Source: Candidatus Bathyarchaeota archaeon (lineage in GTDB: Archaea > Thermoproteota > Bathyarchaeia > TCS64). Taken from it: a stretch of 64,000 nt of DNA. Position numbers and translations under genes: made by a program. The stretch lies in assembly GCA_043826455.1 (NCBI GenBank), contig JBDRQD010000015.1:64001-128000 (forward strand), given 5' to 3'. Positions 39,436-64,000 of the stretch are shown here, in pieces (the stretch's first letter is position 1; every line of letters starts with the position of its first letter). The notes under the pieces were generated by a model. That model was given only the letters and a program-made list of their open reading frames with translations, searched no databases and was not told where the DNA came from.

Positions 39436-40521
39436 CTAGGGTATGATCTCGCAGCCGTTGTTGAGCGAGGGGTAGTCGAAGGCGTCCGCGGGGAGAACCC
39501 CCTCCTCCATGAGGCCACGGGCCAGCGGCACAAGCCCCTCAAGCTCCTCAATCATGTGCCGGGTGGACTCGCAGACCCTGTCGAACCACCCGCGGCCCCA
39601 GAACATGGTTTGGTTGACGTAGAGGCATCTTCCGCCGCACACCCAGAGGTCATCGCAGCCGTCGCAGGGCTGAGCCACTGGCAGGCTGTCACGTATCTCC
39701 TGAGGCGTGGAAGTGTGTATGCTTCCCACCTTGGAGTAGGGGAGCTCAGGCGCCACAGGGCACACGTGGACGTCGCCGCTGGTCATGATGGCGAAGCTGT
39801 CTCTCCCCGAGCCACACCATATGTGGGGCGCCGGTTCCCCTGTGATGAGGGTCCTGAGGACGGGGATGAAGGGGACCACGCCGAGGACTCTGCCCTGCTT
39901 GATTGCGTCGCTGAAGTCGTGGACCAGCCTCGTGATTCCCTTGTCGTACCTGTTAATCCAGTCCTCCAGGCTGTGTCTGGTCTCCAGATCCGACCAGAAC
40001 ACATCCAGCTGCCAGTGGACGTGGTCGAAGGCGGGGCTCTCCAGGCTTAGGAGGTGGGTGACGTCCCTGTGGATGTCCCCTTGGTCGCTGTAAGCCATCC
40101 TGGCCACCACGTCCCCCTTGTAGCCTCGTTCCTCCACGTCCCTGAGGTTCATGAGCACGGAGTCGTAGGTGCCCCGCCCCCTGCAGGCGTCCGTCACCTC
40201 CCTTGGCCCGTCAATGGACACCAGTATGCTGTGGAGCCTGTGGAGGTACCTGTCCTCTATCTCGGCCAGGTGGGTGGCGTTGGTCTGGAGGGTGTAGGCC
40301 TTGGCGGGGACGCTGTCCATCACCCTGTACATGAAGTCTATGGCTAGGAGCGGCTCGCCGCCATAGAAGCCGATGACGGGTTCCGGGTCGAGCCCTATGA
40401 AAGCTTTAAGGTCCTCCATCGTGTACGCCGGGTCCATGGGGAGTCCCTCCTGGTGCCTGGTTCCCCCGCAGTAGGCGCAGTGGAGGTTGCAGCGCTCCGT
40501 GAGGACCAAGTGGTACTGCAT
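39436..40521 (-). CDS. Radical SAM/SPASM protein (TIGR04084/AF0577-like)
   Basis: CNLHCAYC, YGGEP and SIDG motifs; SPASM Cys (CGSG, CP, C..C....CGGRC); C-terminal GCEIIP. Confidence 0.85.
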   Translation of the reverse strand: MQYHLVLTERCNLHCAYCGGTRHQEGLPMDPAYTMEDLKAFIGLDPEPVIGFYGGEPLLAIDFMYRVMDSVPAKAYTLQTNATHLAEIEDRYLHRLHSILVSIDGPREVTDACRGRGTYDSVLMNLRDVEERGYKGDVVARMAYSDQGDIHRDVTHLLSLESPAFDHVHWQLDVFWSDLETRHSLEDWINRYDKGITRLVHDFSDAIKQGRVLGVVPFIPVLRTLITGEPAPHIWCGSGRDSFAIMTSGDVHVCPVAPELPYSKVGSIHTSTPQEIRDSLPVAQPCDGCDDLWVCGGRCLYVNQTMFWGRGWFDRVCESTRHMIEELEGLVPLARGLMEEGVLPADAFDYPSLNNGCEIIP

Positions 40522-40569
40522 ATGGTGTCCAACATGGTTGGGCTGGGTTCAATAAAAACTTGGAGATGG

Positions 40570-41610
40570 TTAACGGCGCCTGGCCAGCTCCAGCCTCAGG
40601 GCCTCCAGCTCCCGCCGGGCAGCCCCCTCATGGGCCTCACCGTACCAGGGCTGGCCCGCGCTCATTACTCTGAGCCTCTCTATGAGGGCCACGCTCTTCT
40701 CCAGGTGCCCCACGATGTTGCCATCTTCATCTGTGACGCCGTTGAAGAGCTGCGTCTGCCTCTCGCTCCAGTCCCCCGGCTGGTCCAGGCCCGGGACGTA
40801 GCTCAGGATGAGCCTCCTGAGGGTCTCGGGAGCGATGACGCTGCCCAGCTTCCTGGCCTCGCCCGTGACGCCGTGGTAGCTCTCATCCAGGCCGTAGATG
40901 GCCATGTCGTAGTTATTGTGGGCGAGCTGGGTAACGTCGCATATGGCGAAGCTGACGAGGCTTATGTCGTGGCGCTTGCAGAGGGCCCCCAGCCTGACGA
41001 GGGCGGGGACGGCGATGAACCCGTAGAGGACAACCTTCTCCGGGCTCAGTCCGCTGAGCAGGATATCCAGCAGGGCCGCCTCGGCTGAGCGCCCTGTGGC
41101 GTAGGTGTCGGGGACTATCAGGGTCTCCACGCGCTCCAGGTCCTCGGGGATGCTCCTGTAGGACACCTTCAGGCTCCTGGGGTCGTCGCTGTGGTCCCTG
41201 TAGCCCTCCTCCACGTACTCTGTGCGGATGTTGATGACGGGGACACGGCCCGGCATGGTCTCAGCCACCATGTAGCCGGCCCCTGCTCTGAGGATGTGCA
41301 TTAGCGCGGCTTTCTTCAGGTTCACGGAGCCTATCTGCTCAGCCGCCTTAACGAAGTCCCGGGCGGCCTCCAAGCACAGGGGCTTGAGCTCGTCCCCCAC
41401 TATGTGGGGGTGGCAGGCTATCAGTCCGCCGGCTAGCGTATCAATTATGTAGGTTTCACCTATGTACGTCCCCTGGGGGATCAGGCTGGAGCCCTCCACC
41501 CTGTACACATCGGCGCCTGCTCCAAGGTCCTTAATGTTGACGCGCTTGACTGAATCGGTATCGACCTGGAACTCCCGAACGATGGTATCCAGGATGTCCC
41601 CGTCCGTCAA
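40570..41610 (-). CDS. Divergent phosphoribosyltransferase-like (UPRT-like) protein
   Basis: HILRAG and LIVPDTYATGRS resemble UPRT PILRAG and the PRPP loop DPMLATGGS. Confidence 0.55.
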   Translation of the reverse strand: MTDGDILDTIVREFQVDTDSVKRVNIKDLGAGADVYRVEGSSLIPQGTYIGETYIIDTLAGGLIACHPHIVGDELKPLCLEAARDFVKAAEQIGSVNLKKAALMHILRAGAGYMVAETMPGRVPVINIRTEYVEEGYRDHSDDPRSLKVSYRSIPEDLERVETLIVPDTYATGRSAEAALLDILLSGLSPEKVVLYGFIAVPALVRLGALCKRHDISLVSFAICDVTQLAHNNYDMAIYGLDESYHGVTGEARKLGSVIAPETLRRLILSYVPGLDQPGDWSERQTQLFNGVTDEDGNIVGHLEKSVALIERLRVMSAGQPWYGEAHEGAARRELEALRLELARRR

Positions 41611-41622
41611 GTCAGCCCGCCT

Positions 41623-42519
41623 TCACTGTTTATCTTCCTGCTCCTTGGGCTGGAACTGGGACAAATACCGCTGAATGAGCTCAGGCTGCCTGAGCACCAT
41701 GTGGGCGTTGACCCTCACCATGTCTCCGTACATGGCGCCGACGCCGGGGTCAAGCTCCTCCATCCTCTTACGCCACTCTGTGCCCACAGCGGTGGACGCA
41801 GGGCAGTCCGGTCTACAGGGGAAGAAGTAGCCGAGGGGGTAGGCGTGGGGGTTGATGCTCTCTCCTCCTTTGGCGGCCTCGACAAGCTGGTTGGCCGCCC
41901 GGGCCTCCACGTTCACGCCCTTGGCCCGGTCCTCGGCGTACCTGTCCACGCAGCACTCGGGGTAGCCTAGGAGGCGGCCCGCCCTCTTGATCCAGCCGGG
42001 CTCAAACTCCTCTGGGTAGGCGAACTGGATGCCCCCCATCTTGGGGTCCGGCTTTCTCTGCACCTTATGCCTGAGCTTCTCCCGGTCTCTGAGGAGGCCC
42101 ACCAGCTCCCTCCTCACGGCTCTGTCCTTGAAGATGTATACCTCGTGGACTGTGGGGCGGACCTTTGATTGCTCCGACTTCAGGCCCAGCCTGTCCGTCC
42201 AAGAGTAGAGGGCCTTGTACTGGGGGGATCCCTCCACGTGCTCCTCGAAGCCCTTCTCTAGCATCTCCTTAAGGGCCCTGACGGCCATGAGCTTGGCGGC
42301 CGGCTCCGTGACGGTGGGCAGCTTCATCATGTGGGGCTGAACCTTCTCGTCTATGCGTTGCCCCATCTCTGCGCCCCCGGGAAACTCTGCCGGGATGGTC
42401 ACCTGGGAGACTCTCCGCAGCCCGAGGTGGGGTAGCAGGAGGGACTCCACCTTGACCCGGGGCAGCACGGCCCCCTCTTTGAGGAGCTCGTCGAGAAGCT
42501 GTCTGTCCAATTTCCTCAA
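41623..42519 (-). CDS. DUF483-domain protein
   Basis: GRLLGYPECCV and FFPCRPDC motifs. Confidence 0.7.
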   Translation of the reverse strand: MRKLDRQLLDELLKEGAVLPRVKVESLLLPHLGLRRVSQVTIPAEFPGGAEMGQRIDEKVQPHMMKLPTVTEPAAKLMAVRALKEMLEKGFEEHVEGSPQYKALYSWTDRLGLKSEQSKVRPTVHEVYIFKDRAVRRELVGLLRDREKLRHKVQRKPDPKMGGIQFAYPEEFEPGWIKRAGRLLGYPECCVDRYAEDRAKGVNVEARAANQLVEAAKGGESINPHAYPLGYFFPCRPDCPASTAVGTEWRKRMEELDPGVGAMYGDMVRVNAHMVLRQPELIQRYLSQFQPKEQEDKQ

Positions 42520-42568
42520 ATATGGGTGACTGTGGAGCCTTTTAACCTCTACGAGAGAAAATGTAAAG

Positions 42569-42580
42569 AAAAATTTGGGG
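42569..42580 (-). terminator. C-run/T-run terminator candidate (CCCCAAATTTTT on the minus strand)
   Basis: Just after the operon's last stop; the identical 12-mer recurs at 49765-49776. Confidence 0.5.
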
Positions 42581-42585
42581 GGGTG

Positions 42586-43221
42586 TTACATCGGGATTAT
42601 CTTCAGGACTTGTAGGAAGAACTGAGCTCTTCCTGTGAGCATCGTGAACCTGAAGAGCACTGTGTTGCCGAAGTAGGCGCCGAGGCCGATCATGATGAAT
42701 AAACGACCTATCCTTGTTGGTGCCTGCAGGGCCCCTGTGTGCTCGTAGGTTAGCAGGAAGTACATTATGCTACTGATTAGGCCCACCGCTATGTATAGGA
42801 AGTTGACCCAGTCCATCATTGCTCCTGTGCTGGGCGCCCTGATCGTGCTGACGATGGCGTCCAGTATGCTGGGCTTGATGACTCCCCTCATGCCCAGGCC
42901 GAAGCCTGCGCCTACTAGAAGGGCGACGGGGTACCTGCTGACCCACCTGTACTCGGGAATAAGCATCGTGTAGATGAGGGCACCTATGACAAGGGGCACT
43001 ATCATCAGTATGTCTCCTCCCAGCAGCGGGGTTATGCAAATCCTCATCACGTTGGTGAAGTTGACCACCAGGTTGATGGCCAGGAATATGGCGATGAAGA
43101 TGTGCTCCGCGAACCTGTAGGTCACGTTCTCCTTGTAGAGCGGGTAGCTGTAGATCATCAGCATGAGCAGCCAGCCTGTCCACAGGCCGATTAAGCTGAA
43201 CAGTTCTGTTGGGTACGCCAT
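42586..43221 (-). CDS. Polytopic membrane protein of the DUF6754 cluster
   Basis: YSYPLYKEN..YRFAEH and GRLFIMIGLGAYFGNTV..R segments; about 6 TMs. Confidence 0.8.
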   Translation of the reverse strand: MAYPTELFSLIGLWTGWLLMLMIYSYPLYKENVTYRFAEHIFIAIFLAINLVVNFTNVMRICITPLLGGDILMIVPLVIGALIYTMLIPEYRWVSRYPVALLVGAGFGLGMRGVIKPSILDAIVSTIRAPSTGAMMDWVNFLYIAVGLISSIMYFLLTYEHTGALQAPTRIGRLFIMIGLGAYFGNTVLFRFTMLTGRAQFFLQVLKIIPM

Positions 43222-44057
43222 TACGCTTGCCTCCTTGAGACTAGGTATCCGACGTTAGCCAGTATGACGGCTAGCACGATAAGTATGTGGGATGCGTTGA
43301 TGCTGTCCATGGATGTGGTGGCCTCACCGGGCTCCCTTATGAGGACCTCGAGCTCGGCTCCGCCTCTGGACCCAATGCTGAGCCCAAAGTAGTTGCCGGC
43401 CAGGTAGTAGGGGTAGTCGGTTGAGCCGTTCATGGCGATGCCGATCTCGGCCAGCCGCGTGCCGTGGGCTCCCTGCCACTGCCTGAGGAAGTAAGCCCCG
43501 ACGTCACCTGTGTCGGAGCTCAGCACCACCGCGACATCCTGCCACCCGTGGAAGTCCCGCATCAGCGAGATCTCAGACACGGGAGTCCCGTAGTGGTCCT
43601 CAGGGTAGACGGTCCATGCGTCTGTTGCCAGCTGTGCTATGGCTGACTCTCCGCCTGTGAAGTAGCCTAGGAACACGTAGTCCACACCGTACTGCTTGGC
43701 TGCGAAGTCCGCCGCTGCGTCTGACCTCAGCTTGTTCATTGTTAGCTCCACATCATAGTGGGATCCCATGAAGACGATCCTGGCGCCTTCCCTGAACAAT
43801 GCCTTGGCGCACACGGCGAAGCCGGGGGCGCACTCACTCCATGCGCTCACACCGTAGCCGAAGTTCATGATCGCGATGTCTCCAGGCTCGATGTTGGCTC
43901 CTGTGATACCCTCATACAGGTCCCTTGTGTTCTGCACGACTTTAACGGGCAGCGCCAGGGGAAAGATGAAGGGAACACACAGGGTGATGAAGAGCACCCA
44001 GTAGAACACCCTTCTGTCGATGTTCTGCAGCTTGTCGAATATGTTCTGGCTGCTCAC
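43221..44057 (-). CDS. Membrane protein with a central soluble domain, DUF6754 cluster
   Basis: IDRR..Y N-terminal TM, YGVDYVFLGY and a C-terminal TM. Confidence 0.8.
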   Translation of the reverse strand: MSSQNIFDKLQNIDRRVFYWVLFITLCVPFIFPLALPVKVVQNTRDLYEGITGANIEPGDIAIMNFGYGVSAWSECAPGFAVCAKALFREGARIVFMGSHYDVELTMNKLRSDAAADFAAKQYGVDYVFLGYFTGGESAIAQLATDAWTVYPEDHYGTPVSEISLMRDFHGWQDVAVVLSSDTGDVGAYFLRQWQGAHGTRLAEIGIAMNGSTDYPYYLAGNYFGLSIGSRGGAELEVLIREPGEATTSMDSINASHILIVLAVILANVGYLVSRRQA

Positions 44058-44707
44058 TACTCTTCACCTCCGGCGTAGAAGCCTCTCTCCTTACCCAGCA
44101 GGGCCCTGAAGCCGTAGGCGATCGTTCCTAGGGCGCCTACCACTCCGAAGACCCTCATTCCGGGCACCTGGCCGACGAACCTGAACCACTCTCCGATGGC
44201 AGGGATCCCGCTCCAGATGACCTCGCCGACTGGGGCGTTGCTCAGGATGACGAAGCACCCAGCTATGAGCATGAGGGCTGCGTCAACGTTCCTGGCGCGG
44301 AACGCCCTGTAGGCGGCTGAGAAGATGTAGAAGCCCGTGATGGCGTACGTCGTCGAACCTAGAGGCGTGTAGACGTTGTTGAACAGCCAGTTGTAGATGC
44401 TGTTGCTGGTGGCTACACCTGTGCCTAGGTATCCTGCGAGACCGGTGAAGAGCATGATGACGAACGCCACGAGGAACAGTGCACTGAACTGCCAGTTCGC
44501 TCTCCTTCTCTGGGTCCCCATGGTGTGCTGCATTATGAGCCTGACGCCACCCAGACCTAGGCTGATGTTGTAGATTATCACAGCCCAGTTCCTGATGGTT
44601 GAGGCCACGATCCAGTCCTGGGGGAAGAAGAAGTACTCGACGAACATGAGCACAGTGACTATCCCCGTTATCGCGAAGACCACTTCACGCTTAAATATCT
44701 GCGACAT
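44057..44707 (-). CDS. Polytopic membrane protein of the DUF6754 cluster
   Basis: FYIFSAAYRAFRARN motif, about 6 TMs, C-terminal LLGKER. Confidence 0.8.
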   Translation of the reverse strand: MSQIFKREVVFAITGIVTVLMFVEYFFFPQDWIVASTIRNWAVIIYNISLGLGGVRLIMQHTMGTQRRRANWQFSALFLVAFVIMLFTGLAGYLGTGVATSNSIYNWLFNNVYTPLGSTTYAITGFYIFSAAYRAFRARNVDAALMLIAGCFVILSNAPVGEVIWSGIPAIGEWFRFVGQVPGMRVFGVVGALGTIAYGFRALLGKERGFYAGGEE

Positions 44708-44713
44708 TTTTCA

Positions 44714-45499
44714 TCACATCCTCAACAGGTCCGCTATGAAGTTTATATTAGCTGCTCCGAGCAGGAAGCCGACACCAGTGAGGGCCACGAGTAACAACTT
44801 GATTATGTCCTCGCCCTTGATTGAGCCAAGCACGTCCGGGTTTCCACTGATGGCTGCACCCGCGGCATACAGCTCCTCCGCGAGGAGCATGTAGTCGCAT
44901 GTGGCCACCAAGAAGGGCATCTGGTGTGTGTTGTTAGTTCCACCGATCTGCATAGCGCCGATGGTGTTACCGCCCTCAGCGATAATCACGGACTCATAGT
45001 AGAAACCACCCACCAGTATGGTGGAGGCGGGCCTCTCCCTCTGTAGATATCCAAGAGTGCCTGTCATGTACGCTGACTGGCCTGAGAAGAACCTGACGGA
45101 TTCGATATCGAACTCCTCAGGCTTGCCCTGGGACATGTAGGCTGTCCTCATGGTCTCCTCCACCAAGGGTAGCGCGTCTGGCAGTGGACATAGAGCCGCA
45201 ATCTTGACGCCTGCCTTCACACATTCTTCGGTCACGTACTCCAGGATGGAGATGGCGGCCAGAGTCTGTGGTCCCTGTGTAGAGTCGTTGAGGCCGCCTG
45301 CGATACCGGGCGTCCACATCACTGGCTGGCCCATCTCGGCGGCCCTTCCTACGGCCTCCGGGATGGCCTGTATGGCTGGTAGTGTTCGAATCTTGTATGT
45401 TTTTCCCTGTTTGCCCATGTACATGTAGTAGTACATTAAGGCGAAAGTTAGAATCAGCAGTATGAATGTCATTAATCGTCCTGTTACTATTATTGCCAT
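44714..45499 (-). CDS. DUF6754-domain membrane protein
   Basis: IRTLPAIQAIPEAVGRAAEMGQP, GAMQIGGT and QMPFLVATCDY.L..EELYAAGA motifs. ATG45499. Confidence 0.8.
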   Translation of the reverse strand: MAIIVTGRLMTFILLILTFALMYYYMYMGKQGKTYKIRTLPAIQAIPEAVGRAAEMGQPVMWTPGIAGGLNDSTQGPQTLAAISILEYVTEECVKAGVKIAALCPLPDALPLVEETMRTAYMSQGKPEEFDIESVRFFSGQSAYMTGTLGYLQRERPASTILVGGFYYESVIIAEGGNTIGAMQIGGTNNTHQMPFLVATCDYMLLAEELYAAGAAISGNPDVLGSIKGEDIIKLLLVALTGVGFLLGAANINFIADLLRM

Positions 45500-45851
45500 T
45501 GTTTTTCCTTCCGTTTTTCTTCGCCTATCCACCGGGCAGTTCGTAGTGTACTCTAAGCCGAGTCACTGTGACGCCGCCCAATGAATGATAGACTTGTGAA
45601 TTGATCACTATTCTGTATATATAATACTTTTTTCCAGTTATTGTGTTCCCTGATATTTTAGGGATAAGATTATACCTGTAATAATAAAAACTGTGGGCTT
45701 TTCATAACTTCTCTGACGTTTATGTTAGCTAAAAACCACGATCACGTGAGCCGGTCCTCTAGTTACTCTACTATAGTAAGAGTGATGTGTCTATATCTCG
45801 GATGCATCGAAAACAATCAATAAAAGCGTTTAGTTGAATCTTCACAGAATG

Positions 45852-46241
45852 CTAGAAGGGAAGAAATCTTCTCCAGCCTTTCTTTTCTTCTTTGGCTTTT
45901 GTTTCCACATCTTTCTCCCCCTCACTTCCTTCCCCTTTTCCTTCGTTGATAAGCCCCTTCTCTGACAGCTCCTCCAGCCTCTTGATGAGCTTCTCCAAGT
46001 TGTCGCGCTTCTGGAAGACCTTGAAGAACTTGTCCCCCTTGGTGTAGGCGCTGTCCCCGAAGAAGGGGAGGAAGGGCATGACGAACACTGAGCCTATCTG
46101 GCTGCCGATGAAGGCGAGGGGCTTACCGCTCTCCAGGAACAGGATGCCCGCTGTCTCGAGCCCGTACTTGTGGAACTCGCGGGCCGTCCACTCTATGACC
46201 CTGGCCTCCTCCTCGGGGGTGACCTCTTCATCCCAGAACAT
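45852..46241 (-). CDS. Conserved hypothetical protein
   Basis: ILFLESGKPLAFIGSQ segment; typical codon usage. Confidence 0.75.
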   Translation of the reverse strand: MFWDEEVTPEEEARVIEWTAREFHKYGLETAGILFLESGKPLAFIGSQIGSVFVMPFLPFFGDSAYTKGDKFFKVFQKRDNLEKLIKRLEELSEKGLINEGKGEGSEGEKDVETKAKEEKKGWRRFLPF

Positions 46242-46281: not shown

Positions 46282-46710
46282 TTAAGAACTTGCCTGCCGG
46301 CGCCTCCTGAGGCGGGCCCTGACGGTCATGTAGCCTCCAAGTACTCCGCCGGCCGCGAAGCATATGAGGAGGGCCACCATGAGCCTGGCGTCCGGCATGG
46401 GGGCAAGGGTGAACATGATGAAGATGCCCATGACCCAGGAGACGGCGGCCAGCTTCAGCCCCACCAGCAGGTGCTTCTCGTCGGCCCGCTTACACACCTG
46501 TCTGGACGAGATGTAGCCCCCTAAGATGAATACCACCCAGCTGAACTCGGCGATGGCGGCCACTATCAGCTGATCCGTGCTCTTGATGAAGAGGGGTAGC
46601 GCCTGCATCCACACCCAGACGACGCCGTTGGCCAGCATGGCACCGGCTACGTAGTCGTTGATGTTTGGTTGCTTGGGCTTGGCGGGCTCCTGGGGCTGTG
46701 TCTGCTCCAT
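46282..46710 (-). CDS. Four-TM hypothetical membrane protein
   Basis: Four hydrophobic segments with GGY motifs and a basic tail. Confidence 0.7.
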   Translation of the reverse strand: MEQTQPQEPAKPKQPNINDYVAGAMLANGVVWVWMQALPLFIKSTDQLIVAAIAEFSWVVFILGGYISSRQVCKRADEKHLLVGLKLAAVSWVMGIFIMFTLAPMPDARLMVALLICFAAGGVLGGYMTVRARLRRRRQASS

Positions 46711-61330: not shown

Positions 61331-62506
61331 TTACTCCTCGATGATCTCCACGTTAGCCCTGGGCACAGTGACCACGCGGCCGTCCTCCAGCTCGATGTTC
61401 ACCACACGCACCATGCTCTCCGACTCCAGCTGCTGCAACTCTACTGGCAGGCTGTGAACCTTCCCTATGGCGCCGAAGTAGGGCTGCCGGATGATCCTGA
61501 TGGGCGTCCCCGGGACCATTCCGCTGGAGAGGGACTCCTCGCCGCCCTCCCGCCCCTTCAACTCGTGGGGGATGATGATCTCCGGCCTAAGGACGCCGGC
61601 CCTGATCTGGGTAGCGCCGTTGACGCAGGCCCTGTAGCCCTCGAAGTCCTTGAGGAGGTCAAAGGTGCGTTGGCTCATGACCATATTGCCGAAGCCCTCA
61701 GTGATGATCAGGGTGATGCCCACCTCCTCCTGGCCGGTGATGGCTACGCCTATCTCCTCACCTGTGAAGGCGATGAGGTCCTCATGCCTGATGCCTCCGC
61801 TGACGATGCCGGAGGCCCCCACCTCCACGGCCTTCCTGAGGGCGTCCAGGGTCACCCGGCTGCCTCCGATCAGGATCAGGCCCTTGTGCTCGGGCTTGAT
61901 CATGTCAGCGTCCAGCACCTGGTCGCTGCTCTCCACCATCATGTGGATGTCGCCGTGGGTCTCCCCGCCGATGCCGAAGATGCCCTGGATGAAGGCGGCG
62001 TTGGCCTCGATGACGGCGCCCTCTCTGGGCATCACCTCCACTACTGCGCCCGGGATGTAGGCGTCCACCTCCACCGGGATGGGAGAACCCCTGATGATGA
62101 CCTGGCCCGTGATCTCGCTGATGCTCTCGATGGTGCCCGTGACCGGGGTCTTGACTCTCTTCTTGATGAGGCCGAAGAGGGCCGTGTAGTAGGCGATGAG
62201 CTCATCCTTCTCCACCTTTTCCCCCAGCTGCTTCAACATGAACCTGGGTACGTCCTCGGCCTCCACTCCCAGGATCATGCCCGCCTTAATGATCTCGGGG
62301 TCTCCGCTGATCTCGGTACGAGCGATGACTTCGTCGTACTCCACCCTGTCCCCAACCTTGGGGAAGACCTCCCCCAGGATGGGGAGCCGCCTCATCTTCT
62401 CCACGCTCATGGACCGCTTGACCTTGAGGCCAGGCGTATAGGCGTGGGCTTCCTCAGTCTCCTTCTCGTTTCCGTTAGTCTTCTTTGCTTCTGCTTTCTT
62501 CACCAT
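61331..62506 (-). CDS. Conserved hypothetical GlmL-associated protein (barrel-sandwich-hybrid-like segments, C-terminal KOW-like segment)
   Basis: AHAYTPGLKV, RRLPI.GEV, IQGIFGIGGE, TEGFG, GATQIRAGV.RPE and VPRANVE segments; 1 bp from the GlmL-like stop. Confidence 0.75.
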   Translation of the reverse strand: MVKKAEAKKTNGNEKETEEAHAYTPGLKVKRSMSVEKMRRLPILGEVFPKVGDRVEYDEVIARTEISGDPEIIKAGMILGVEAEDVPRFMLKQLGEKVEKDELIAYYTALFGLIKKRVKTPVTGTIESISEITGQVIIRGSPIPVEVDAYIPGAVVEVMPREGAVIEANAAFIQGIFGIGGETHGDIHMMVESSDQVLDADMIKPEHKGLILIGGSRVTLDALRKAVEVGASGIVSGGIRHEDLIAFTGEEIGVAITGQEEVGITLIITEGFGNMVMSQRTFDLLKDFEGYRACVNGATQIRAGVLRPEIIIPHELKGREGGEESLSSGMVPGTPIRIIRQPYFGAIGKVHSLPVELQQLESESMVRVVNIELEDGRVVTVPRANVEIIEE

Positions 62507-62507
62507 C

Positions 62508-64000
62508 TTAGATCAGCGCCTCCAGCTTGTCCGCGTCGTATAGATTCACTGACTTGAACCAGCTCAGTAAAAGCTCCTTCCTCTGGCTCTCGTTCTCCGG
62601 CAAGTACAGGGGTCTGCCGCGGGCATCCATCATGACGCCGGCTATGCCGCCGCTCACAGTGGTCTCAAGCTCCTTACCAGGGCCGGCGCCCACGTTGAAC
62701 TCCTTGGCGGGCGTAATCATGGCCTTCGCCTCCTCCCTCTCATGGAGCTCCACGATCTTGATCTCGCCGAAGTTGAGCTCCTCCTTCACGTGCTCACCGT
62801 TGGGCATGTCCAGCTCCACTGTCATGCAGAGCTCGCCCAGCTTTCCTGTGCCAGCGGCCGCAATGTTGGTTCCCATCCTGACCAGGCAGTCCTTGTCGAA
62901 GACGCTCCACGCCGCTTCCCGGTATACCGTGCTCAGGACGCCTATGTGGGGCATCATGAAGACGCTGTCCTGGAACATCCTGGTGACTCCCTCGGGGAGC
63001 CAGGCGTCGCTGAGGATGTACATGGCTTGGACTCGCCTGGGCGCATGGCTCAGGAGCCCGCCTGTGCCTGCGCAGATGGCGATGTTCATCATCTCTACGT
63101 AGCTGTCAGCCACAGCCTGCTCGAACATGTCGCTGATGGTTCTCTGCAGCTGTATGCCTTTGAGTCTTGTAGCGATGGTCCTGTGGTGGTGCAGGCCCAG
63201 TCTTAGGGCCTCGCGCGCCACTGAGTGCTCCACTATGAGGTCCTCCAGGGTCTGGGGGATGGTGGTGGGCCTGATCATCTTGTTCATGAGGCGGCTGGCT
63301 ACCTCCTCTTTGTCCAGGTTGAAGGGTATCCACCTCATGATGTTGTCGATGCCCGCCTCCTTCATTACGTTGGTGACGCTGTAGCTCATGCCTAGGTTGG
63401 CTGACACAGAGCGGACGAACCTGCCGTCCACCACCGAGTACACGTTGGTGGTGGCTCCGCCCAGACCGACGCCCAGCACGTTCTGCTTGTATGAGTTAGC
63501 GATAAGCTGCATGGCCATGCCCTCGCCCGCTGGCGTCGGCATGATGTCGACGTCCGTCCACTTCATTAGTTTCTGGTACCCTGGGGCGTGACTCATGACG
63601 TGCTCCATGAAGAGCTCGTGGACGGCGCGTCTAGCGGGCTCGGTGTTCTCCACCTCCAGGACGGGCCTGATGTTGTCCACCATCTGTAGGGCGAACCCCG
63701 ACTTCAGGAGGTTCTCGATCTCCTTCCTCAGGGTCTTGTTTCCAGCGTAGACGATGGGGAGGTTGTAGGCTACGCCAAGCCTGGGCTTGGGCTCTGCGGC
63801 CTTGATGAGCTCCGCTATCTCCATGACGTGGCTGCCGGCGCCACCGTCGGTGCCCCCTGCCATGAGGATCATGTCGGGCCTTAGGCTCCTGATCCTCCGG
63901 ATCTTCTGGTAGGGCTGTCTTCCGTCGTCTCTGGCGATGACGTCCATTACTATGGCGCCTGCTCCGAGGGCCGCCCTGTTGGCGCTCTCAGCGGTCATGG
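62508..64000 (-). CDS. glmL: GlmL/MutL-like (glutamate-mutase-associated ASKHA-fold) protein, 5'-truncated by the window edge
   Basis: TAESA.RAALGAGA, PDMILMAGGTDGG, YAGN, MPTP, GGATT.VYS, RSVSANLGM and GTGG motifs. Confidence 0.8.
   Translation of the reverse strand, partial: MTAESANRAALGAGAIVMDVIARDDGRQPYQKIRRIRSLRPDMILMAGGTDGGAGSHVMEIAELIKAAEPKPRLGVAYNLPIVYAGNKTLRKEIENLLKSGFALQMVDNIRPVLEVENTEPARRAVHELFMEHVMSHAPGYQKLMKWTDVDIMPTPAGEGMAMQLIANSYKQNVLGVGLGGATTNVYSVVDGRFVRSVSANLGMSYSVTNVMKEAGIDNIMRWIPFNLDKEEVASRLMNKMIRPTTIPQTLEDLIVEHSVAREALRLGLHHHRTIATRLKGIQLQRTISDMFEQAVADSYVEMMNIAICAGTGGLLSHAPRRVQAMYILSDAWLPEGVTRMFQDSVFMMPHIGVLSTVYREAAWSVFDKDCLVRMGTNIAAAGTGKLGELCMTVELDMPNGEHVKEELNFGEIKIVELHEREEAKAMITPAKEFNVGAGPGKELETTVSGGIAGVMMDARGRPLYLPENESQRKELLLSWFKSVNLYDADKLEALI

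Follow-up and report, generated by a model that had tools for sequence, protein, structure and literature searches.

What kind of membrane system is encoded by a compact run of four genes led by a member of the family DUF6754 (PF20539), and what drives it? The run lies in a 64,000-nucleotide stretch of DNA from a Candidatus Bathyarchaeota archaeon (assembly GCA_043826455.1, contig JBDRQD010000015.1, positions 64,001 to 128,000), which in its full length we call the window, and its genes, here named A, B, C and D, occupy 42586..45499 on the minus strand. An earlier reading of the DNA (the original prediction) had proposed a multi-subunit uptake system, possibly for peptides or amino acids, that matched no known transporter. 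We find that this cassette is a real, conserved, multi-subunit membrane system that is uncharacterised, and that it possibly imports nutrients in a way not described before. The reading we favour, for which the case seems to us about evenly balanced, is that A-B-C-D forms the membrane module of an importer for peptides, amino acids or related amides, energised or gated by a shared actin-fold ATPase pair, G and H. The analysis shows which genes are present and in what order, that they are inherited together and accompany G-H, that certain enzyme genes are enriched nearby, and what fold A has; transport, substrate and ATP coupling are what we infer from this.

A conserved four-gene membrane cassette

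The four genes are as tightly coupled as originally predicted. Gene A (44714..45499, 261 amino acids from an ATG start) is separated from B (44057..44707, 216 amino acids) by a gap of 6 base pairs (bp), and B overlaps C (43221..44057, 278 amino acids from a GTG start) by 1 bp, as does C with D (42586..43221, 211 amino acids). An in-frame GTG at 45532 would lengthen A by 11 amino acids, but its closest homologues have 261.

This arrangement is repeated within the genome and well beyond it. The genome that contains the window (97.7% complete, 7.2% contaminated) holds eight intact cassettes in the same order, with 26%–55% identity to the window proteins. Across loci with at least 2.5 kb downstream of A, some of them redundant, B-C-D follow A in 159 out of 162, which bears out the expectation that the four genes co-occur across genomes, and every one of 140 D genes checked has A upstream (again with some redundancy). 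The exceptions to the order were A-B (L065), A-B-short C (L066) and A-B-C (L098), and D was absent there by tblastn. The identity matrices of the four subunits were correlated across 76 cassettes (r = 0.84–0.88), indicating that cassettes are copied and inherited whole.

In a sample of the class, 48 of 151 genomes contained DUF6754, including all 27 others of the window's family, with a maximum of 15 matches in one genome. The phylum sample was far sparser (8 out of 301 genomes). Look-alikes of C and H in the Atlas belong mostly to bacterial clusters, and homologues of D include proteins assigned to Bacillota; the D family as a whole comprises 2,914 clusters at 50% identity (E up to 0.001). 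No relative of A was found on plasmids. RNA-library contigs of close relatives from four studies, mostly 90%–99% alike, covered all four genes and bridged all three junctions, and the libraries with relatives of the cassette came from sediments and waters. These contigs end near 42577 and 45514, and none extends over 45520–45921, where missing cover proves nothing; RNA depth was not used for ranking genes.

We note some irregular copies. A is split in five loci (L025, L079, L112, L133, and L195) and B is short or split in two (L120 and L162), through decay or assembly error. Three bacterial-type contigs (L169, L198, and L200) carry three cassettes in direct tandem, with A extensions of unequal length among the copies, and the tandem cassettes of L198 and L200 adjoin ftsZ-ftsA-ftsQ-murC. 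A record labelled Candidatus Desulfaltia sp. (L001 and L027) contains a cassette 97% identical to the window A and nine DUF6754 matches, and its label appears doubtful.

At the level of families, the cassette is largely blank. A is a full-length member of DUF6754 (E = 1.7e-67; 227.8 bits where 27 would suffice; positions 7–255 of the 257 in the model), a family that covers A alone and has no function attached, and B, C and D had no match above Pfam or NCBIfam cut-offs. Weak Pfam matches were scattered among alignment members, at most 13 out of 127 for B, 2 out of 78 for D and 1 out of 78 for C. No solved structure was matched significantly when profiles of A–D, G and H were used as queries. 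The predicted layout of two polytopic and two anchored soluble proteins was upheld by hydrophobic segments: A and C each have one transmembrane (TM) helix, a domain of ~200–215 amino acids and another TM helix, while B and D each have five strong segments and probably a sixth, weaker one, giving about six TM helices.

The AlphaFold model of A, built from 78 sequences, had a predicted local distance difference test score (pLDDT) of 95 and a predicted template modelling score (pTM) of 0.89. It consists of a TM helix (9–30), a six-strand Rossmann-like alpha/beta domain and a long helix (221–249) that runs back across the membrane. In VIA its neighbours were Rossmann-like domains that are unrelated to one another and score much alike (best Z 10.0, root-mean-square deviation [rmsd] 3.0, 135 aligned residues; Z 8.7 at rank 50), ties that give a fold class and no family. 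Foldseek returned no match to A at E ≤ 0.001, an absence that is no proof of a new fold. B was modelled as a set of long helices (pLDDT 85, pTM 0.67), as may be expected of a subunit that packs only with its partners. It likewise had no Foldseek match (best E 0.39), which again does not establish a new fold, and in VIA its best neighbour had Z 5.7 (rmsd 7.0, 87 aligned residues), with CbiQ at rank 37 (Z 4.3). A complex prediction of A, B and D with C scored 0.79, yet the control in which A was replaced scored 0.77, so this result counts neither way on binding.

D possibly contains three helical-hairpin repeats (E = 4e-4, 4e-4, and 9e-3), modestly above reversed controls (best 4e-3), and we offer this only as a suggestion. 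Searching with the B profile among longer proteins found no fused form, which is weak evidence, and long D matches contained insertions or repeats and were not fusions. Two D homologues (P0344 and P0376) have insertions of 180–280 amino acids in the loop that precedes TM5, and one of these insertions carries EF-hand-like DxDxDG repeats, which is in line with that loop facing outside.

Charge distribution suggests how the subunits sit in the membrane. Averaged lysine plus arginine counts near the membrane were 5.6 on the domain side of A, and 3.0 before the first TM helix and 2.3 after the second TM helix of C. On this basis the Rossmann-like domain of A is predicted to be inside the cell and the domain of C outside, and by the positive-inside rule the N-terminus of B would be inside and that of D outside. 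Many bacterial-type A proteins have an N-terminal extension after a hydrophobic leader (with a weak FN3 score in 2 out of 21), which agrees with an outside N-terminus for A.

Conserved charged residues group on the putative cytoplasmic face. In A, the conserved positions are R38, E48, R52, E55, D202, E208, E209, and D231, all but D202 belonging to that group; in B they are R134, R137 and R139 (within SAAYRAFRARN), P159, W174, R185, R201, and E207, of which the three arginines, R201 and E207 belong to it. A few polar residues also lie within TM helices or where these reach the outer face, namely B R185 (123 out of 127 members) and C N268 in the second TM helix of C (78 out of 78). Among 66 diverse cassettes, the inner domain of A was the most conserved region (mean identity 0.39), and the outer domain of C was among the least conserved (0.29, or 0.275 for residues 38–210), making the latter a candidate specificity domain; among the paralogues it is the region that varies most.

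The original prediction had also pointed to loosely similar C-terminal patterns in A and C. Both motifs are present, but their likeness was not significant (BLASTP E = 14). Profile comparison of A and C matched the first beta-alpha-beta unit only (score 28, E about 0.001, probability 12%–20%). None of 16 control windows (best 19.9) and neither of two reversed controls scored as high, and an origin of the pair as an inverted repeat by duplication is possible on this footing. B and D showed no similarity in the equivalent comparison (E = 0.078 and 0.12). Inverted-topology paralogue pairs are known from other membrane complexes, such as RnfA/E and NqrD/E, in which homologous subunits have opposite orientation.

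The partner pair G and H

Clustering of 1,199 open reading frames near cassettes yielded four recurring families with poor or no annotation, E, F, H, and G, found near the cassette in 54 (bacterial-type included), 37, 36, and 31 loci, respectively. G and H form a pair at 61331–64000 on the minus strand of the window, ~16 kb from the cassette. H occupies 61331..62506 (391 amino acids), and the 3' part of G occupies 62508..64000; the 611-amino-acid G gene starts ~340 bp past the window end, and the next cassette copy adjoins just outside the window. G (~610 amino acids in the family) belongs to the MutL/GlmL family PF13941 (E = 6.9e-117, 391 bits, above cut-off) and has actin-like phosphate-1 (DVGSTTTK), phosphate-2 (GLGGATTN) and adenosine (GTGGLLSH) motifs. 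H (~385 amino acids) gave weak barrel-sandwich-hybrid (Biotin_lipoyl/RnfC_N) and KOW-like signals, and no invariant carrier lysine motif was seen in its lipoyl-like hybrid domains.

The pair tracks the cassette across genomes. In the class sample, H was present in 46 out of 48 DUF6754-positive genomes and in 2 out of 103 negative ones. One of the two positive genomes without H is 68% complete and the other has only a contig-edge DUF6754 fragment, and the two negative genomes with H are 65% and 78% complete. MutL scored above cut-off in 45 out of 48 positive and 6 out of 103 negative genomes. In the phylum sample of 301 genomes, all seven H-positive genomes were among the eight with DUF6754. 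Five of these eight belong to another class and have 4–8 DUF6754 matches but one G and one H each; at the four G loci fetched from them, the cassette was not nearby. In a phylum labelled Hadarchaeota, the sole genome of 66 with full-length DUF6754 was also the sole genome with H, and a second had a 69-position DUF6754 fragment and no H.

Some bacterial-type loci place the partners and the cassette in one run. These were OppA-B-C, E-G-H-A-B-C-D and OppD (L146); E-G-H-A-B-C-D, an LplA-like gene and a TonB-dependent receptor (L185); and G-H-A-B-C-D, an LplA-like gene and a family 5 solute-binding protein (SBP) (L156). Since G and H both track the cassette and share its run in such loci, the system is probably larger than A-B-C-D: the membrane unit that was originally proposed stands, and G and H probably work with it. 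The LplA-like genes, of the lipoate ligase family, lie directly 3' of D (L156:11020-11805 and L185:7382-8269), and in L155 an NlpC/P60 gene directly follows D.

MutL/GlmL is described as a chaperone for reactivating glutamate mutase (PMC4682846). G has the actin-like phosphate and adenosine motifs of this family but differs from the reactivase in being ~150 amino acids longer, nearly always accompanied by H, linked to DUF6754 and apart from mutase genes. MutE had no match in the window genome (G000) or in G065, G220, and G389 (0 out of 4), and a weak match in the control genome G134. With no MutE match there, and with H and the cassette as its neighbours, G does not look like a glutamate mutase reactivase. 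A search for lysine aminomutase gave no match in any genome searched and was uninformative.

Among the six MutL matches in DUF6754-negative genomes, four provide a natural control for a mutase-reactivase role. These four are of a short type (~465 amino acids), without H and directly before a gene of ~555 amino acids that matched B12-binding domains in three out of four cases and MutE in one. In these Bathyarchaeia (L207–L210, from G078, G122, G134, and G149), the ~555-amino-acid gene appears to be a fusion of B12-binding and MutE-like parts, possibly a single-chain B12 mutase.

The window genome has three G-H pairs for its eight cassettes. The third pair (contig G000:C47, L215:6825-9457) is divergent and has no cassette nearby; in its G the first phosphate motif is degenerate (DINSKSTK), its H lacks the C-terminal ~80 amino acids, and the pair may be an inactive or regulatory paralogue. 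Short H matches (about 290–330 amino acids) occur in many genomes of the family, and three that were fetched adjoin an ArsR-type helix-turn-helix gene or a look-alike.

Gene neighbourhood and relation to known systems

Genes for peptide and amino acid breakdown lie near the cassettes more often than expected. Within 5 kb of the seven other copies in the genome we counted 14 peptidase, amidohydrolase or aminotransferase genes. Random positions across the genome would give 3.5, and positions on the same contigs 6.1 (p = 0.003); all seven copies were flanked. Control families did not show this pattern (3 versus 4.0 expected). An enzyme gene of this kind lay within 1 kb in six out of seven copies (1.3 expected on the same contigs), and restricting the count to the families named in the original prediction also gave six out of seven (1.0 expected under the genome-wide null). 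The peptide and amino acid context noted around the window cassette holds up in the other copies. The window genome contains 146 such genes in total. In two further loci (L140 and L178), the cassette adjoins a DAO-family oxidase cluster, with proline racemase, M24 peptidase and DUF885 genes also present in L140, and this gene content suggests proline or glycine-type substrates for some copies.

As had been predicted, no signature of a known transporter was found in the cassette proteins. ABC_tran, the ATPase domain of ATP-binding cassette (ABC) transporters, had no match in A–F, G, or H, and the recurring nucleotide-binding partner is instead a MutL family protein. DctM, TctA, the major facilitator superfamily (MFS) and other carrier families had no Pfam or NCBIfam match in any subunit or its alignment members. 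Neither EcfT/CbiQ nor S-components of energy-coupling factor (ECF) transporters had a Pfam match in the subunits or alignment members, a result at the sequence level, with folds modelled for A and B. Families are lacking for B, C, D, E, and H alike. No paper on DUF6754 or PF13941 was found in a literature search largely without subscription papers and with supplements excluded.

The closest parallel in gene logic is with group II ECF transporters. In these, EcfAA'T is encoded with scattered S-components, and many membrane modules share few ATPase modules (PMC4820897). The cassettes are likewise many and scattered, with few putative G-H energisers encoded elsewhere. The coupling helices of EcfT carry conserved cytoplasmic arginines, and the conserved arginines of B, probably cytoplasmic, resemble them. 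The candidate energiser is, however, an actin-fold protein of the MutL family rather than an ABC ATPase, and each membrane module consists of four subunits and is predicted to expose soluble domains at either face of the membrane. Opp/Dpp ABC transporters, tripartite ATP-independent periplasmic (TRAP) transporters and tripartite tricarboxylate transporters (TTT) resemble the cassette in probable substrate class, in combining an outside domain with polytopic subunits, and in the Opp linkage of L146. They differ in that the cassette has no SBP, BPD_transp_1, DctM/TctA or ABC_tran match, and in that its putative outside domain is held by two TM helices.

The intergenic region upstream of A (45500..45851, minus strand) is the probable cassette promoter region; the AT-richness claimed for it is real (GC content 0.39, compared with about 0.6 nearby), and Rfam had no significant match there. 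No riboswitch was found upstream of the cassette in the window, nor in the 34 scanned of 79 metagenome loci. The terminator-like tail that had been noted is a T-rich tract directly past the D stop (42551..42573, minus strand) and is oligo-T, not a stem-loop; such a tract lies 3' of D in all eight copies of the genome, and it is probably an archaeal-type terminator. A scan for sigma-70 promoters and stem-loop terminators is ill-suited to an archaeon.

Directly upstream of the cassette, also on the minus strand, are accessory genes E (45852..46241, 129 amino acids) and F (46282..46710, a small membrane protein of 142 amino acids). E homologues adjoin five out of eight copies in the genome, and F has weak DUF3792/TIGR04086 scores under cut-off. 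Downstream, on the same strand, 39436–42519 encodes a DUF483-like protein (298 amino acids), a UPRTase-like protein (346 amino acids) and a TIGR04084 radical SAM protein. These genes recur 3' of the orthologous cassette, and a DUF483-like gene also follows G-H in L153 and L222.

Mechanism, alternatives and significance

If the cassette is an importer, each paralogous copy would have one specificity, and all would be energised or gated by a common G-H pair encoded apart from them. The outward domain of C, the most variable part, would capture the solute, and B and D, together with the membrane-spanning helices that A and C contribute, would form the path across the membrane, using conserved polar residues such as B R185, C N268 and H257, and D R191. 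The cytoplasmic Rossmann-like domain of A and the cytoplasmic arginines of B could provide the dock for G-H, and ATP turnover on the actin-fold G would drive the conformational cycle. Imported compounds would then be handled by the neighbouring peptidases, amidohydrolases and aminotransferases.

Several of our results weigh against this reading or limit how far it can be taken. The wider set of peptide-related families was picked after the neighbours were seen, contig C15 has three times the genome's density of such genes, and the neighbours in many loci are of other kinds, for example genes for cell division or ribosomal proteins (L145, L198, and L200). The window genome also has three family-5 peptide-binding-protein matches in two genes, and thus does not lack known peptide uptake. 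Because related genomes are not independent, the co-occurrence counts express tight linkage and not a p-value. The RNA contigs show presence in libraries rather than one transcript and may include DNA, and the topology is based on positive-inside counts and bacterial leader sequences. Furthermore, the phosphate-2 motif of archaeal G is GLGGATTN, whereas short MutL and bacterial G keep an acidic residue (EVGGATTN and DIGGATTD). With this residue replaced, and the first motif degenerate in the third G, ATP hydrolysis is not assured.

A reactivating role for MutL (PMC4682846) would favour remodelling over pumping. It fits an alternative to which we assign a modest chance, that the cassette works on its own as a secondary transporter or channel of pseudo-inverted symmetry, with G-H serving as an ATP-dependent chaperone for its assembly, resetting or regulation. 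Such a device is suited by the prediction that A is oriented opposite to C, and B opposite to D, as does an A/C profile score above every control, and few G-H pairs per cassette would suffice for a catalytic chaperone. However, B and D lack profile similarity and the A/C probability is low, leaving duplication unproven, and both the near one-to-one co-occurrence with G-H and the operon fusion exceed what is usual for an optional regulator. There is a smaller chance that the system is a transmembrane receptor in which C, together with the FN3-like extension of bacterial A, senses a ligand and A signals to a G-H switch. Soluble domains on both sides, a variable outer domain, many paralogues and few cytoplasmic partners would all be expected of a receptor, and RCK/KTN and other regulatory Rossmann domains are among the tied fold matches of A (Z about 9). 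Yet the genes that recur near cassettes encode catabolic enzymes and uptake parts, not a kinase, cyclase or DNA-binding output, and a receptor would hardly seem to need some 16 TM helices and conserved polar residues within the membrane.

Two further explanations involve chemistry or the opposite direction of transport. Group translocation or vectorial chemistry, loosely like the phosphotransferase system (PTS), would have G act as a kinase of the ASKHA (acetate and sugar kinase, Hsc70 and actin) superfamily or as an activator similar to hydantoinase/oxoprolinase. It would modify the solute during its passage, and H or A would be the carrier. Its chance appears slim: no invariant His or Cys that could accept a phosphate, as expected of PTS-like translocators, was found in H, A, C, or E (the best being H184 in 17 out of 29 H members and C201 in 58 out of 78 A members), and a single G would need to handle solutes from as many as eight cassettes. 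This must be set against weak Hydantoinase_A scores in 7 out of 26 G members (best E 2e-6), weak BcrAD scores, lipoyl/biotinyl-like hybrid domains in 21 out of 29 H members with a weak RraA match (E = 0.06), and the LplA-like genes after the cassette in L156 and L185. Export or assembly of peptides, surface proteins, lipids or envelope polymers is the most improbable of the explanations that we considered. Actin-fold ATPases are known from envelope and secretion machines, with FtsA, PilM, and Hsp70 as examples, bacterial-type A proteins do have outside extensions of 100–700 amino acids, and some loci adjoin cell-division genes (L198 and L200). Against this, enrichment near the cassettes concerns catabolic genes, a conserved cargo gene was not among the recurring neighbours, and the linked SBP family 5, Opp permeases and TonB-dependent receptor all point inward.

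The importer driven or gated by G-H therefore remains the reading we favour. In its strongest form, which we hold tentatively and doubt somewhat more than we believe, A-B-C-D with G-H (and E) would be an undescribed class of primary active importer that uses an ASKHA ATPase instead of an ABC ATPase, with one motor serving up to 15 specificity modules, and would be a main peptide and amino acid route in a sediment lineage of Bathyarchaeia and in many uncultured bacteria. To our knowledge, ATP-driven solute importers use ABC/ECF or P-type ATPases, and coupling by an actin-fold ATPase would, if true, constitute a new transport class. Even if G-H is only a chaperone, A-B-C-D would be a membrane complex without a characterised relative. 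The family is also large, with its thousands of D clusters, and expanded up to 15-fold in single archaeal genomes, and the Bacillota homologues of D may offer a route to experiments. Bathyarchaeota metagenome-assembled genomes are described as peptide-fermenting, and in one study several were without an OppA-type transporter (PMC9534799). The cassette is a concrete candidate for the missing uptake capacity of peptide-fermenting Bathyarchaeia.

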